Source: a virus
Lineage: Duplodnaviria > Heunggongvirae > Uroviricota > Caudoviricetes
Virus record (IMG/VR): IMGVR_UViG_2713897161_000001
Span: 1-38,517 of that record
Reading direction: 5' to 3' (one strand)
DNA: 38,517 nt
Shown here: positions 4,646-9,990 of the stretch, piece by piece
Numbering within the stretch: the stretch's first letter is position 1
How the letters are laid out: every line of letters begins with the position of its first letter
Translations under genes and position numbers: made by a program
The notes under the pieces: model-generated
Told to the model about the DNA's origin: nothing
Database searches by the model: none
The model's input: the letters and a program-made list of their open reading frames with translations, nothing else

Positions 4646-5407
4646 TTAGGAATCAAGGTCAGGTAGCATGATTTTCTCAATCAACGTCAATGCCCTTTGG
4701 TCTCGTTCAGCAAAATATTTAGGAGCGTACTGAGGCAGCCACACTTCGTTGAAGTGTTGTTTGAAATCTGCAAGATATTCGTTTGGGTATAGACGTACCG
4801 GGAATGTCCGGCCATCTGGGTACTCATGGTTATATGTTGGGAATGTCTTCGGCTCAACCCCCCGGTTGTCACGGAGCCATTGCGAGAAAACCCTACCCTC
4901 TGAAATATCAGGGACCATTTTTTCTGGCAGCGTATATCCGGCCTGTTCAAGTGGCGCAACCAAGTTAAACGTCAGTTCATTAAGCATAGAAAAGTGCGTA
5001 TGAGGAACTCTGCCTCGGTTTGTCATATACCGCTTAAGGTGGATAGGGAGTTCGGCAGGCGCTCTTTCACCTGACATCCACTCACGCACCCATCTCGATA
5101 CTTGCACTGCAAATTTTGGAGATAGCCACTGAGCTAAATTAATTGCGATGTCTGGATGAACCCAAGTCCCTTGATTCTCTGCTCTTCCGCCTTTAAATGA
5201 TTGAATTAACTCCGATATGGGAATCCCCATATCGCGTGATAATTCATCAAAAAAATCTTGTGTTGTTTTTAGTCGTGTATAGTCAGCAAGTAGCTTCCCC
5301 GCAGACTTGCACATCGCGGTGGCATTGATGTATCCGTCTTTGGTGCGAAGATGGATGACTTCTCCATCAACTTCTCTAGCGATTAATGCAAGTTGAAACT
5401 GTGTCAT
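4646..5407 (-). CDS. KilA-N domain protein with uncharacterised C-terminal domain
   Basis: 253 aa; N-terminal region (HLRTKDGYINATAMCKSAGK) recalled as KilA-N/APSES-type domain; directly downstream of and co-oriented with cI. Confidence 0.65.
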   Translation of the reverse strand: MTQFQLALIAREVDGEVIHLRTKDGYINATAMCKSAGKLLADYTRLKTTQDFFDELSRDMGIPISELIQSFKGGRAENQGTWVHPDIAINLAQWLSPKFAVQVSRWVREWMSGERAPAELPIHLKRYMTNRGRVPHTHFSMLNELTFNLVAPLEQAGYTLPEKMVPDISEGRVFSQWLRDNRGVEPKTFPTYNHEYPDGRTFPVRLYPNEYLADFKQHFNEVWLPQYAPKYFAERDQRALTLIEKIMLPDLDS

Positions 5408-5489
5408 AAATCATCCTATTACGTGAAAAATAAAACAATCACCCAAACGTCTCTTCAGGCCACTGGCTATCAGCTATGTGACGATGAAG

Positions 5490-6194
5490 TCACGAACTTT
5501 TCAGCCACTCCCTTGCCTCGATGTCATCCAGATGGCGAGATTGCTTCAGAATACCAGCCACATACTCCACCTTTGCTACTTGATGATAAGGCAACGTTAT
5601 TGGCCTATGGTCCTGGTTGATGCTTGTAAACTGGTATTCTCCGTCTCTGTCATAGCCAAGAACTTTGATCATGTTGTGTCCTTCAACGGTTCTGACAAAC
5701 ACCTCATCACCCGGGAATACTTTGGTGTTAGGCTCAATGAGTACATATTCTCCTGATTTTATTCTAGGCCACATGCTGTCTCCTTTCACACGAAGACCAA
5801 AGGCATCTGGATCATCGCTATAAATTTTGAGCCACCCATCGCGCTCTTCGGTCATCTCGATGGCACCATCAACACCAAGAATTGCCTCACCAACCACGCG
5901 CACTAACCCTTTTCTTACCTGACCGACAAAAGTTAAAGAATCTGAGCATGATGCAATTGGTGTTACATCATGTACCAAATCAAGCCACCCATTAGGTAAC
6001 CCAAGTGCGGCTTCAAATTTTCTTGCTAGTTTATCCCCTATGTTTCGAGTGCTTTTTTCACCGGAGACTTGCGTGAGTTGAGAAGGGCTAACCCCAAGCT
6101 TATCGGCAAAGCTTGCATTAGTGTTACCCGCGATTTTTTTATGCTCATCTAGCAAAAACGCCAGATTCGATTTGCGAATATCTTTGTTTTCCAT
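5490..6194 (-). CDS. cI: cI-type repressor (HTH DNA-binding domain plus LexA/S24-like autocleavage domain)
   Basis: 234 aa; N-terminal HTH-like region, C-terminal S24 peptidase-like segment (GDSMWP...EYVLIEP, NMIKVL); divergent from cro across an operator-rich intergenic region. Confidence 0.85.
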   Translation of the reverse strand: MENKDIRKSNLAFLLDEHKKIAGNTNASFADKLGVSPSQLTQVSGEKSTRNIGDKLARKFEAALGLPNGWLDLVHDVTPIASCSDSLTFVGQVRKGLVRVVGEAILGVDGAIEMTEERDGWLKIYSDDPDAFGLRVKGDSMWPRIKSGEYVLIEPNTKVFPGDEVFVRTVEGHNMIKVLGYDRDGEYQFTSINQDHRPITLPYHQVAKVEYVAGILKQSRHLDDIEAREWLKSS

Positions 6195-6222
6195 CTCACA
6201 ATTTTCCCTCTATTTAGCAAAT

Positions 6223-6296
6223 GGATAAATACGCAATATGATAAATTTACATTGCGTTTGATTTATCAAAATGGTAAAGTTATTCTGTATGATAAA
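6223..6296. promoter_or_regulatory. OR operators with divergent pRM/pR (putative)
   Basis: Repeated GGATAAAT/TGATAAAT/TGATAAAC motifs at 6223-6230, 6239-6246, 6289-6296 and palindrome TTTGATTTATCAAA at 6257-6270 in the cI-cro intergenic region. Confidence 0.5.
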
Positions 6297-6307
6297 CGGA
6301 GGCACTA

Positions 6308-6541
6308 ATGAGTAATGAACTACTACGCTGGCGAAAAGAGGCTTCTAGTGAGGAATGGAAGCGACTCGCCGCATTAGCGAAAACTTCAGTTGGCTATCTT
6401 GACCAGATTGCATATGGATTTCGAAGAGCTTCCCCTGATAAAGCGAATGCAATCGAAGAAGCTACTCGTAATTTCACGGCCTATAAACCCGTGAAAAAGG
6501 AAAACCTGGTGTTCGTATCGCGTAGAGCATCAGCAGCATAA
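6308..6541 (+). CDS. cro: Cro-like transcriptional regulator
   Basis: 77 aa ORF divergent from cI, first gene of rightward operon; family call by position. Confidence 0.6.
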   Translation: MSNELLRWRKEASSEEWKRLAALAKTSVGYLDQIAYGFRRASPDKANAIEEATRNFTAYKPVKKENLVFVSRRASAA

Positions 6542-6548
6542 GTAACAC

Positions 6549-6594
6549 CGCTCTTTTCACAATGGACATTCGTCCTACGTCGCTGACAAAGCGA
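6549..6594 (+). promoter_or_regulatory. nutR (boxA CGCTCTTTT and boxB hairpin TCGCTGACAAAGCGA)
   Basis: boxA-like CGCTCTTTT at 6549-6557, boxB stem-loop at 6580-6594, between cro and cII. Confidence 0.6.
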
Positions 6595-6679
6595 GTCCCA
6601 ATATATCTGACCAACTAAGGCCACATGCGTTTCCACGCATACCTTTCAACTAACTATTCACTATTGGAAATATTAAGAA

Positions 6680-6976
6680 ATGGAACAAACAAGTTACAGC
6701 AAACTATCACAGCGTGACGTTGATCGCGCAGAAACAGATTTACTTATCAATCTGTCAACTATTACCCAGCGCGGTCTGGCAAAGATGATTGGCTGTCATG
6801 AATCGAAGATAAGCAGAACGGACTGGAGATTTATTGCTTCGGTCTTGTGTGCTTTCGGAATGGCATCAGACATCAGTCCGATTAGCAGGGCTTTTAAGTA
6901 TGCGCTTGATGAAATCACAAAGAAAAAATCCCCGGCTGCCACCGAGGATTTTAAGCAAATTGATATGCAATTCTGA
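6680..6976 (+). CDS. cII: cII-type transcriptional activator
   Basis: 98 aa; HTH region and C-terminus ...[18 protein letters not shown] closely resembling lambda cII C-terminus as recalled. Confidence 0.75.
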
Positions 6977-7008
6977 GGGAATTACTGGATCAATCCACAG
7001 GAGTAATT

Positions 7009-7155
7009 ATGACAAAACAACTCAGTCCTTACCAGGACAAAATTCACAAACACATACTACGTGATCGCTTCCTGTCCAGCTTCAAGCAGCCTGGTCGATT
7101 CCGGGCTGAGTTGGAAAAAGTGAAGCTGATGCAGAAGGAGAAAGGTCATGAGTAA
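7009..7155 (+). CDS. Small hypothetical protein (48 aa) between cII and O-like gene
   Basis: ATG at 7009 preceded by GGAG; overlaps O-like start by 8 nt; below ORF-track cutoff. Confidence 0.3.
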
Positions 7156-8047
7156 CATATCTAATCTAGCCGAAGCCAGAGAGGCCAGAAGGCTCCAACA
7201 ACCGCATCAAAGCAGCGGTAAGGGGTATGCCTTGCTGCACCGTAAAATTATGGATGTGCCGTTTTACAAGGACGCAGAAGCAGCGCATCTGTGGGTTCAC
7301 TTAATCCTCAAAGCAAAGCATACGCCTGAGTATGTAATGACTGACGCAGGAGAAATTCTGGTAGGCAGAGGGAAGCTACTTGGTGGTAGAAACTCTCTGG
7401 CGTTTGAAACAGGACTCAAACCAGATCGCGTTCAGTACCTGCTTAGAAAGTTCAAAAAACTCGGCATGATTGACTGGGTTTCACACGGTAAATTCTCAGT
7501 TTTCTCGGTAGAGAAATATGACGATTATCAGTCAAATTTTGTACCAGCAGATTACCAGCAAATTACCACCTCAAAGCCAGCAATACCAATGCCTGCAAGC
7601 AATACTGTACCAGCAGATTACCAGCAAATTACCACAGATAAAGAATATAATAATATTATCTCTAATACTGACGTATTAGAGAGTACCGCAGCAGACAAAA
7701 AGTCTGACAAGAAAAAACCTTCCGTCAGCTGTCAGGATGTTGTCGATGCTTACCACGAAATCCTTCCTGAAGCGCCAAGAATCCGCGCACTGAATGACAA
7801 GCGTAAAAACCAGATCCGAACGTTCTGGCGCAAAGCCGGAGTGATAACCCGCCAGCTTGACGGGCATGGGTTCACGATGCAGGACTGGAGAAATTATTTG
7901 AGCTACGTAGGCGAAAATTGCCGATGGATGTTCGAAGAGCGTCCAAACCATCAACGCGGAACTGTCTGGCACAAAAAGGGATTTGATTTCCTGCTTAACG
8001 ATAATACCTACCTGAAAGTTCGTGAGGGTGAACACGATGACCGATAA
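7148..8047 (+). CDS. Replication initiation protein (lambda O / P22 gene 18-like)
   Basis: 299 aa; position after cII; gene contains internal iteron repeats followed by AT-rich segment, as in lambdoid ori. Confidence 0.75.
7541..7635 (+). repeat. Origin iterons inside O-like gene: two 29-bp direct repeats, each built of ~10-bp TTACCAGCA-type units
   Basis: GTACCAGCAGATTACCAGCAAATTACCAC at 7541-7569 and again at 7607-7635; AT-rich stretch follows at about 7637-7680. Confidence 0.65.
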
Positions 8048-9473
8048 TTTTTATGCGCCGCCCCATAGCATCGAGGCAGAGCAGGCGGTGATTGGTGGAT
8101 TGCTTCTGGATGATGACAGCAGTGAGCGCGTCCAGAAAGTTCTGGCGATGCTGAAGCCTGATTCATTTTACAGCCGACCACACAAAATCATTTTCGAAGA
8201 AATAACCAGAATGCACCGTGAGCAAAAGCCAGTAGATGGCCTGACGCTTTTCGATGAACTGGAGCGTAAATCGTTAACTGTGTCTGTTGGCGGTTTTGCT
8301 TATATCGCTGAGATCGCAAAGAACACGCCAAGCGCAGCAAACATCGTTGCCTATGCAATGCAGGTTCGTGAAACCGCAATGGAACGCTACGCCATCAACC
8401 GCATGACTGAAGCGACGGAATTGCTCTATTCCCGCAACGGAATGACTGCAACGCAGAAGTACGAAGCTATTCAGTCGATTTTCACGCAACTGACAGACCA
8501 TGCAAAAACCGGATCGCGTCGCGGCCTTCGTTCATTTGGTGAGGTCATGGAAGACTGGGTTAGCGACCTTGAGAAGCGATTTGACCCATCAGGCGAACAA
8601 CGGGGAATGAGCACAGGGATCCCATCGCTGGACAGGATGCTGTCACCGAAAGGTCTGGTGAAAGGCTCTCTGTTTGTCATTGGCGCTCGCCCTAAGATGG
8701 GGAAAACGACGCTATACAGCCAGATGGCAATCAATTGCGCAGTGCATGAGAAAAAGCCCGCTTTGATGTTCAGCCTTGAAATGCCAGGTGATCAGATACT
8801 GGAAAAACTGGTAGGGCAGAAGTCTGGTGTTAACCCGAATATTTTTTACCTTCCGGCGACAAATGACGCTGATGACGGCTATCAGGGTGATTACGATGGT
8901 GACTTCAACAGGGCGATCGAAACAGCTAATCGCTTGAGTGAAATCGACATGCTTTACATCGACGACACGCCGGGATTATCTCTGGCTCAAATCGTCAGCG
9001 AAAGCCGTCGAATCAAGCGAGAAAAAGGATGTGTTGGCATGATTCTGGTCGATTACCTGACACTAATGACCGCTGAGAAGGCCGATCGCAACGACCTTGC
9101 TTACGGCATGATCACCAAAGGACTGAAGAACCTTGCCAAAGAGCTTGATTGCGTTGTTGTGCTTCTGACGCAGCTTAACCGCGCACTGGAAAGCCGAACC
9201 AATAAACGCCCATTACCAAGTGACTCGCGCGATACAGGGCAGATTGAACAGGATTGCGATTATTGGGTGGGGATCCATCGTGAAGGTGCTTTTGATGACA
9301 GTGTTCCGCCTGGTGAAACCGAACTAATCCTTCGTCTCAATCGTCATGGCAATACCGGCACGGTGTATTGCATTCAGGCAAATGGCGCTATTTATGACAC
9401 AGACCAACAGTCTGCTGAAATGCGCCGCCGTGAACGCGAGGAACCGCAGTCCAAGAAGAAAGGAGGATTCTGA
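8037..9473 (+). CDS. Replicative DNA helicase, DnaB family (P22 gene 12-like)
   Basis: Walker A-like GARPKMGKT, DnaB-like N-terminus; start placed at ATG 8037 (MTDNFYAPP) with GAGGGTG RBS, ATGA overlap with O-like stop. Confidence 0.85.
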   Translation: MTDNFYAPPHSIEAEQAVIGGLLLDDDSSERVQKVLAMLKPDSFYSRPHKIIFEEITRMHREQKPVDGLTLFDELERKSLTVSVGGFAYIAEIAKNTPSAANIVAYAMQVRETAMERYAINRMTEATELLYSRNGMTATQKYEAIQSIFTQLTDHAKTGSRRGLRSFGEVMEDWVSDLEKRFDPSGEQRGMSTGIPSLDRMLSPKGLVKGSLFVIGARPKMGKTTLYSQMAINCAVHEKKPALMFSLEMPGDQILEKLVGQKSGVNPNIFYLPATNDADDGYQGDYDGDFNRAIETANRLSEIDMLYIDDTPGLSLAQIVSESRRIKREKGCVGMILVDYLTLMTAEKADRNDLAYGMITKGLKNLAKELDCVVVLLTQLNRALESRTNKRPLPSDSRDTGQIEQDCDYWVGIHREGAFDDSVPPGETELILRLNRHGNTGTVYCIQANGAIYDTDQQSAEMRRREREEPQSKKKGGF

Positions 9474-9501
9474 TGACCATCTACATCACTGAGCTAATAA
9501 C

Positions 9502-9533
9502 AGGCCTGCTGGTAATCGCAGGCCTTTTTATTT
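9502..9533 (+). terminator. Intrinsic terminator (tR2-like) between replication and nin genes
   Basis: Hairpin AGGCCTGC/TGGTAATC/GCAGGCCT followed by TTTTTATTTG. Confidence 0.6.
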
Positions 9534-9549
9534 GGGGGAGAGGGAAGTC

Positions 9550-9990
9550 ATGAAAAAACTGACCTTTGAAATTCGATCTCCAGCACATCAGCAAAACGCT
9601 ATTCACGCAGTACAGCAAATCCTTCCAGACCCAACCAAACCAATCGTAGTAACCATTCAGGAACGCAACCGCAGCTTAGACCAGAATCGAAAGCTTTGGG
9701 CTTGCCTTGGTGACGTCTCTCGTCAGGTTGAATGGCATGGTCGCTGGCTGGATGCAGAAAGCTGGAAGTGTGTGTTTACCGCAGCATTAAAGCAGCAGGA
9801 TGTTGTTCCTAACCTTTCCGGGAATGGCTTTGTGGTAATAGGCCAGTCAACCAGCAGGATGCGTGTAAGCGAATTTGCGGAGCTATTAGAGCTTATACAG
9901 GCATTCGGTACAGAGCGTGGCGTTAAGTGGTCAGACGAAGCGCGACTGGCTCTCGAATGGAAAGCGCGATGGGGAGATCGGGCTGCATGA
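9550..9990 (+). CDS. ninB: NinB (Orf-family recombination protein)
   Basis: Protein from MKKLTFEIRSPAHQQ... recalled as nearly identical to lambda NinB; start at 9550 preferred over 9532. Confidence 0.85.
   Translation: MKKLTFEIRSPAHQQNAIHAVQQILPDPTKPIVVTIQERNRSLDQNRKLWACLGDVSRQVEWHGRWLDAESWKCVFTAALKQQDVVPNLSGNGFVVIGQSTSRMRVSEFAELLELIQAFGTERGVKWSDEARLALEWKARWGDRAA

Follow-up and report, generated by a model that had tools for sequence, protein, structure and literature searches.

Several origins closely related to the one described here have already been annotated. In AP000422 (VT2-Sakai) two misc_binding features are named ‘ori iteron 1’ and ‘ori iteron 2’, with the O protein as the bound moiety, and the exact 30-mers of the present DNA stand at just these coordinates of that record. 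In the record of phage L the homologous place is marked rep_origin, ‘putative origin of replication’, and in the record of Sf6 the homologous site is a rep_origin described as ‘repeat region reminiscent of the phage lambda origin’. Six 11-bp repeats in gene 18 of phage L have been reported as its likely origin (PMC8022706). The replication module that carries these repeats is the ‘Eru3’ type of the Stx phages, which includes VT2-Sakai (Llarena 2021, PMC8044961). Hence, the repeats were already known as origin iterons from public annotation and the phage L literature. A search of the available literature returned no binding or replication experiments on the HK022/L-type origin, only sequence-based inferences. 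The experimental work on Stx-phage origins that we found concerns a lambda-type O with six 19-bp iterons (PMC7466680). Effective toxin production is regarded as depending on replication of the Stx phages (PMC7466680).

Three other kinds of origin serve here as references. In lambda four iterons of ~19 bp, dyad-symmetric, are bound by O dimers (PMC5043065). In P22 the origin lies inside gene 18, whose product is only ~25% identical to the L-type initiator (PMC8022706). The iterons of the plasmids P1, F, RK2, pSC101 and R6K are helix-phased direct repeats by an AT-rich region, and their winged-helix initiators bind as monomers (PMC5043065). The role of the palindrome, which is discussed below, is not addressed in recent origin papers (PMC7466680, PMC5043065).

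Here we describe the corresponding locus of a tailed-phage genome. We suggest that positions 7540–7682 are very probably the replication origin of a lambdoid replicon of the HK022/L type (‘Eru3’), placed inside the linker codons of the initiator gene. An origin within an O-like gene had been proposed in an earlier, sequence-only reading of this DNA, and the comparative evidence supports it. What we add to the known picture is the fixed geometry of the origin in its family, a co-varying palindrome, a junction between the iterons and the AT-rich DNA, and alleles with three and four copies of a 66-bp unit.

Architecture of the probable origin

The window is the whole 38,517-nucleotide stretch of DNA that was analysed. 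The 30-mer TGTACCAGCAGATTACCAGCAAATTACCAC is present in it twice, exactly, at 7540–7569 (block 1, plus strand, the counterpart of ‘ori iteron 1’) and at 7606–7635 (block 2, plus strand, the counterpart of ‘ori iteron 2’). There is no third copy in the 38.5-kb window with up to 3 mismatches allowed, and the 30-mer has 0 occurrences in 100 shuffles. Each block is built of three 11-bp direct units with the consensus KTACCAGCARA. The sub-units read GTACCAGCAGA, TTACCAGCAAA and TTACCAC..., and Tandem Repeats Finder returns a period of 11. The units occupy 7541–7551, 7552–7562 and 7563–7573 in block 1, and 7607–7617, 7618–7628 and 7629–7639 in block 2. The start-to-start distance of the blocks is 66 bp, that is 6 × 11, which places all units in one register. 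The two triplets of units are separated by a spacer of 33 bp (3 × 11; 7574–7606, plus strand), and a degenerate fourth unit, AAGCCAGCAAT, is found at its beginning (7574–7584) with the CCA still in register. The sequence-only reading had described two identical 29-bp blocks 66 bp apart, each made of three ~10-bp units; the duplication, the distance and the number of units are as described, but the exact match is 30 bp long and the period is 11.

Both blocks encode the same 10-residue peptide, as had been noticed earlier, at residues 132–141 and 154–163 of the initiator (ORF 7148–8047). However, the 11-bp units are translated in three different frames within one block, and a repeat of the peptide therefore cannot create the unit.

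No inverted repeats are found within or between the iteron blocks, and the units have no dyad symmetry. Nor are the iterons hairpins: folded as single-stranded DNA, their region forms no structure of significance (z +0.6). Between 7000 and 8400 neither a second repeat cluster nor a DnaA box is found, and DnaA boxes show no excess across the window. An Rfam scan of 5400–9600 at a relaxed threshold returned two chance-level matches only, none of them at the origin. The minimum of the cumulative GC skew lies near 6–8 kb; it coincides with the switch of gene orientation at the immunity region and is hence uninformative.

Block 2 is followed by an AT-rich segment (7636–7658), the presumed DNA-unwinding element, judged by its low GC and duplex stability. 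The GC content over 7638–7667 is 0.10, against a window mean of 0.50, and no other 31-mer duplex of the 38.5 kb is as unstable as 7637–7667, in agreement with the AT-rich stretch that had been seen after the repeats. Next to it stands a perfect palindrome, TCTCTAATAC-TGAC-GTATTAGAGA (7659–7682), with 10-nt arms and a 4-nt centre. The earlier reading ended the element at 7680, which takes in the repeats and the AT-rich DNA; the palindrome was missed and extends 2 bp past that end. As single-stranded DNA the palindrome folds with −8.6 kcal/mol on the plus strand and −8.4 kcal/mol on the minus strand (z −5.7 and −4.5).

The initiator and its gene neighbourhood

The locus represents the immunity and replication part of a lambdoid phage genome, in which a cI-type repressor gene, cro, cII and orf48 are located upstream of the initiator gene. 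orf48 (7009–7155, plus strand; DUF2740, PF10872, E 8.9e-29) is small and conserved; it stands just before O, and it is found at the equivalent position in HK022, L, P22 and VT2-Sakai. The initiator gene itself (7148–8047, plus strand) contains the origin and encodes a protein of 299 aa, assigned by homology and by its match to phrog_345, ‘replication initiation O-like’ (E 5.6e-88), as an HK022-type ‘O’. Downstream of it is the gene of a phage DnaB-family replicative helicase of the P22 gp12 / HK022 ‘P’ type (8037–9473, plus strand). It matches TIGR03600 (phage_DnaB) with E 2.8e-175 and 583 bits against a cut-off of 498.65, and Pfam DnaB and DnaB_C also match. The start at 8037 is the one annotated in AP000422; an alternative GTG start is at 8022. 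Thus, the O-like initiator gene of the earlier reading is confirmed as an HK022-type O, followed by the phage's own helicase.

The initiator is identical to the O of mEp235 (100%), 98% identical to the O of HK022 (gp54) and 66% identical to gp18 of Salmonella phage L; for the O proteins of HK022, VT2-Sakai, Stx2 phage 86 and an Stx1 phage the identity is 98–99.7%. In VT2-Sakai, HK022 and mEp235, with initiators 98–100% identical, the order cII–orf48–O–DnaB-type helicase is common and we see no substantive difference from the window; a single mismatch in block 2 is seen in HK022. Taken as a whole, the window is mosaic, and no phage record matches it end to end. An identification with phage phi80 was considered and rejected: the 100%-matching locus in a genome labelled DH5alpha is a lambdoid prophage that has this module too. 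The pair of origin and initiator is a common replication module of lambdoid and Shiga-toxin prophages. Among 5426 complete E. coli genomes, 374 match the origin region, and in 227 of them the match extends over 80% or more of the query.

No curated Pfam or NCBIfam family matched the initiator, Phage_rep_O (PF04492) included, while lambda O, taken as a control, matches Phage_rep_O at 5.7e-36. There was also no Pfam match to a Rep family; DUF7376, Phage_rep_org_N and assorted winged-helix families matched below threshold, and a PDB search with the sequence gave nothing meaningful. An AlphaFold2 model, built on a 60-sequence alignment, has two folded domains. The N-terminal one (aa 26–125, codons 7223–7522, plus strand; pLDDT 81–93) is predicted to be a winged helix-turn-helix, and the C-terminal one (aa 190–299, codons 7715–8044, plus strand; pLDDT 73–91) is the presumed docking site of the helicase partner. 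Between them, aa 133–191 have pLDDT < 50 and are predicted to be a disordered linker. It is the codons of residues 132–179, that is of this linker, that hold the units, the AT-rich DNA and the palindrome. In a Foldseek search of the PDB the best matches to the model are all winged-helix DNA binders (CodY, SmtB/ArsR, CRP, MarR, TubR), at weak scores (E >= 4e-3), and the Pfam matches below threshold agree with them. A winged helix is thus likely but not proven for the modelled N-domain, which we presume, from the sequence comparisons below, to be the reader of the iterons.

Conservation and coupling in the family

The comparison set comprises 30 sequences with 32–100% amino acid identity: the window, 5 phage records and 24 bacterial genome loci. 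These sequences are related and mosaic, and conservation statistics drawn from them do not represent independent samples; they are to be taken as indicative. In all 30 the layout is three units, a 33-bp spacer and three further units (9 × 11 bp), followed by AT-rich DNA and then by the palindrome. The 11-bp units are direct repeats in which CCA occupies positions 4–6 of the unit, in register. The AT-rich stretch, found at the same place in every member, is 15–30 nt long, with the last CCA most often 24 nt from the palindrome, whose arms measure 9–11 nt. The spacer is constant in length and poorly conserved in sequence. In remoter relatives, from Pseudomonas and Vibrio phages, 11-bp direct units likewise adjoin AT-rich DNA in the corresponding part of the gene.

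The layout is fixed and the unit sequence varies, with at least six types among the 30 relatives. TACCAGCA is the type of the window, HK022 and an Enterobacter prophage, and TGTCCAACG that of L, Sf6 and others; further types are TGTCCAGCC, GTGCCAACA / TTACCAACA, AATCCAA and GCCAACGAA. L and Sf6 resemble the window in the 3+3 11-bp units, the AT-rich stretch and the palindrome arms (L differs in the 4-nt centre only), but their unit core is of the second type, and their N-domain is ~50% identical to that of the window, against 93–100% for the C-domain. ST64T and HK620, too, have homologous origins.

Synonymous sites were compared pairwise within three unit types, at the third positions of codons with unchanged amino acid. 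Third-codon identity is 89–98% in the iteron blocks and 55–71% in the N-domain, although the N-domain is conserved as well as or better than the blocks at the protein level. The spacer has the lowest amino acid identity of the region (0.38–0.49), and for two of the three unit types its nucleotide identity, 0.66–0.73, is also the lowest of the region. These comparisons are indicative of selection on the unit DNA itself.

For the palindrome, 36-nt segments centred on it were aligned for the 22 distinct sequences of the family. Each of the 10 stem pairs has changes on both sides, and pairing is kept in 97.3% of the cells; when the 3′ partner is slid by 1–3 columns, pairing falls to 28–47%. The changes are 65 double-sided and 0 one-sided (G-U type). 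As G-T/G-U intermediates are lacking, the pattern is that expected of a true DNA dyad and not of an RNA stem. We suggest from this co-variation that the conserved palindrome would also be part of the origin.

The two domains of the initiator follow different parts of the DNA. For the N-domain (residues 25–125) the identity is 0.83 among sequences of one unit type and 0.52 across types. The C-domain is uncoupled from the unit type, with identities between types of up to 1.00, and tracks the type of the palindrome instead (0.83 within, 0.47 between). Hence, the claim that the repeats define replicon specificity holds on comparative evidence, as the unit sequence co-varies with the N-domain and not with the C-domain. 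The partial matches in E. coli all start at query position 199, corresponding to window position 7638, among the matches listed. This is the boundary of block 2 and the AT-rich DNA, and thus a recombination junction lies between the N-domain with the units on one side and the palindrome with the C-domain on the other.

Three hybrids keep the N-domain, the units and the palindrome and have a different C-domain: Erwinia phage 59 and the prophages Pantoea L032 and Dryocola L033. The C-domain of L032 is 69% identical to residues 178–299 of lambda O, L032 being the one hybrid for which the likeness to lambda was tested directly. In the hybrids a lambda-P-type loader follows, and no helicase, according to Pfam PF06992 for L032 and L033 and to the record annotation for Erwinia phage 59. 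These exchanges support, at the level of sequence, the usual division of labour, in which the N-domain would read the origin and the C-domain would recruit the partner.

Comparison with lambda, P22 and plasmid origins

In lambda, as in the window, the origin lies in the interdomain linker, in the middle of the gene for a 299-aa initiator, and the repeats are followed by A/T-rich DNA and a palindrome, in lambda with 12-nt arms and a 4-nt centre. The lambda N-domain sets specificity and the C-domain sets the partner, as they appear to do in the window type. However, the window has six 11-bp direct units without dyad symmetry, unlike the dyads of the lambda iterons. Its initiator falls outside Pfam Phage_rep_O and has no detectable sequence relation to lambda O: with hhalign, lambda O scores a probability of 0.3% against the profile of the initiator family, a shallow profile of 6 sequences that leaves room for remote homology. 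Its partner is a DnaB-family helicase and not a P-type loader, which in lambda captures the DnaB of the host. The window origin is therefore similar to that of lambda in outline and, judged by iteron form, initiator family and partner, is not lambda-type in the strict sense. Accordingly, the lambda-like arrangement proposed earlier holds for the layout: repeats, AT-rich DNA and a palindrome in the initiator linker are seen in lambda and in P22 as well. Lambda-like iterons and a sequence relative of lambda O are not found.

P22 is close to the window in context (orf48–18–12), with the origin upstream of gene 12, which encodes a DnaB-type helicase. Its order is also that of the window: iterons, A-rich DNA and a short palindrome, CCCCCT-AA-AGGGGG. 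Unlike the window, P22 has four ~20-bp dyad iterons with the lambda-like spacing 20/24/23. Thus, with three types of initiator, those of the window, lambda and P22, the repeats come first, then A/T-rich DNA and then a palindrome.

With the plasmid origins the window shares the form of the repeats, namely a period of 11, blocks 6 units apart and AT-rich DNA adjacent to them. The plasmid iterons differ in being ~17–22 bp long and outside the rep gene, and in usually needing DnaA boxes, of which the window origin has none nearby. The plasmid Rep proteins have no sequence relationship to the window initiator and carry tandem winged-helix domains, in contrast to the single N-terminal winged-helix-like domain of the model.

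Suggested mechanism and alternatives

The mechanism that we propose is modelled on the lambda paradigm and on the plasmid iteron origins reviewed in PMC5043065. Transcription from pR would lead to synthesis of the initiator, and its N-terminal winged-helix domain would bind the six 11-bp direct units. The two triplets of units, exactly six units apart, would lie roughly on one face of the helix. The units are helically phased, which makes head-to-tail binding with one domain per unit probable. Our guess is that the initiator binds as monomers, or with a single subunit on each unit, in the manner of plasmid iterons and unlike the dimers of lambda O. The nucleoprotein complex would then bend, wrap or distort the DNA and melt the adjacent 23–30 bp of AT-rich DNA, and the C-terminal domain would bring the phage's own DnaB-family helicase. 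The palindrome would be the third conserved element, acting as a dyad at the DNA level. Its role is again a guess: it may form a hairpin or cruciform for opening or for helicase entry, or it may be a symmetric binding site.

The repeats might instead be nothing but a duplicated peptide in a flexible linker with no role as DNA. A linker predicted to be disordered would tolerate such a duplication, and the natural alleles with three and four copies of the 22-aa unit fit this as well. Yet the basic unit is 11 bp long and runs through three frames, conservation at synonymous sites is far higher in the blocks than in the folded N-domain, and the peptide varies by lineage while 30/30 sequences keep the 3+3 units, the 33-bp spacer, the AT-rich segment and the palindrome, so that we find this explanation scarcely credible. 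We regard it as very unlikely, too, that the repeats are initiator sites for control (autoregulation, titration or handcuffing) and that replication truly starts elsewhere in the module. Plasmid iterons do serve both initiation and negative control (PMC5043065). Against this stand the position of the repeats beside the least stable duplex of the window, which is the classic pairing of an origin, a layout as at the experimentally defined lambda origin, and the lack of both a second cluster in 7000–8400 and another copy of the 30-mer in the window.

A further alternative concerns the palindrome alone, which would be an RNA element outside the origin, either a leftward intrinsic terminator or an mRNA hairpin. 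A terminator scan does call a minus-strand stem followed by TAATATTATT, and in the phage L record a minus-strand terminator is predicted at the corresponding position. However, the stem contains just 3 G-C pairs and the T-run is interrupted, there is no known leftward transcript crossing the middle of O, and the palindromes of lambda and P22 stand at the same position of their origins. Together with the exclusively double-sided changes, which point to a DNA dyad, this makes an RNA element very improbable. We thus favour the reading of 7540–7682 as one origin that includes the palindrome.

Last but not least, the HK022/L type may represent a distinct kind of lambdoid origin, with single winged-helix domains arranged head-to-tail on two triplets of phased units in a plasmid-like manner, and not as dimers on dyads as in lambda. 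The palindrome, present in lambda and P22 as well, may be a general structure-specific element whose sequence does not matter and which, as a hairpin or cruciform, marks the entry point of the helicase. We put this forward as a speculative extension, which we would not expect to hold in full. The anatomy gives targets for tests, namely the unit cores, the length of the spacer, the unwinding element, the palindrome and the copy-number variants, for which natural alleles with three and four copies of the 66-bp (22-aa) unit exist.

Iteron copy number in natural initiator alleles

The initiator gene of the window carries two copies of the 30-mer iteron block (7540-7569 and 7606-7635), versus three in the alleles L038 and L039:1893-2054 and four in the allele L037:1893-2120, the regions of these alleles being homologous to window 7540-7635 and the initiators comprising 321 and 343 aa, respectively. 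In all three natural alleles the 30-mer copies sit in a perfect 66-bp tandem array, which in L037 contains 3.5 copies of the 66-bp unit with 100% identity. Since alleles with two, three and four copies of the 30-mer exist, the iteron-triplet copy number is polymorphic among prophages of E. coli, E. albertii and Salmonella. This polymorphism recalls that of lambda-type origins, with four versus six iterons.

The middle of the 33-bp spacer (window 7585-7595 and the equivalent position in relatives) often reads ACCAATGCCTG or ACCAAGCGCTG. This motif spans lineages with differing iteron types, while the remaining spacer is variable. The recurring motif could have been inherited from a common ancestor or could be an additional binding site.

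Palindrome and mosaic junction

The AT-rich segment is followed by a palindrome (window 7659-7682), which is found at the equivalent place in 29 relatives from the initiator family. In the alignment of the window with these relatives the complementarity is perfect across at least 12 different arm sequences, and compensatory changes are present in all ten of the palindrome pairs, none of the changes being of the wobble type. Palindromes are also located at the equivalent positions in lambda (L036:563-590) and P22 (L042:1471-1484). No discussion of the palindrome was found in those recent papers on origins that were searched for the term.

A mosaic junction is located at about window 7636-7640, where the second iteron block meets the AT-rich DNA. 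Partial matches in E. coli genomes begin at window 7638, among the matches listed. In the Pantoea (L032) and Dryocola (L033) prophages and in Erwinia phage 59 (L044), DNA resembling lambda GTCAGAGAATT starts directly 3' of the palindrome, and the C-domain of the L032 initiator is 69% identical to that of lambda O. In lambda itself the GTCAGAGAATT motif is the place of two misc_recomb sites in the NC_001416 record (L036:558-567).

Neighboring and overlapping elements

A strong terminator-like hairpin with 12 pairs and a following T-run lies on the − strand within the 3' end of cII (window 6925-6952), and a conserved GGAGTAATTATGACAAA stretch is found directly upstream of orf48 (about 6985-7019). 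The two together correspond to the terminator and promoter region of the oop antisense RNA, which is annotated in P22 and has been described (PMC3349717). Rfam contains no family matching this region of the window.

Two additional ORFs overlap O and look like by-products rather than genes. The 119-aa antisense ORF (7676-8035, − strand) lies inside O; the Stx1 phage record AP005153 lists it under the name ORF b66, with the annotation hypothetical protein. The 53-aa ORF in another frame (7518-7679, + strand) is created by the repeats themselves.

Enterobacterial-phage initiator genes also occur in a contig labelled Chryseobacterium sp., a member of Flavobacteriia (L014), and in a 386-bp contig labelled Xanthomonas pisi (L031), where 84 aa match the window with 100% identity; both are probably contamination of the assemblies. 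A lambdoid prophage whose origin region shows 100% identity is also present in a genome labelled E. coli DH5alpha (L040), although such a prophage would not be expected in this laboratory strain.
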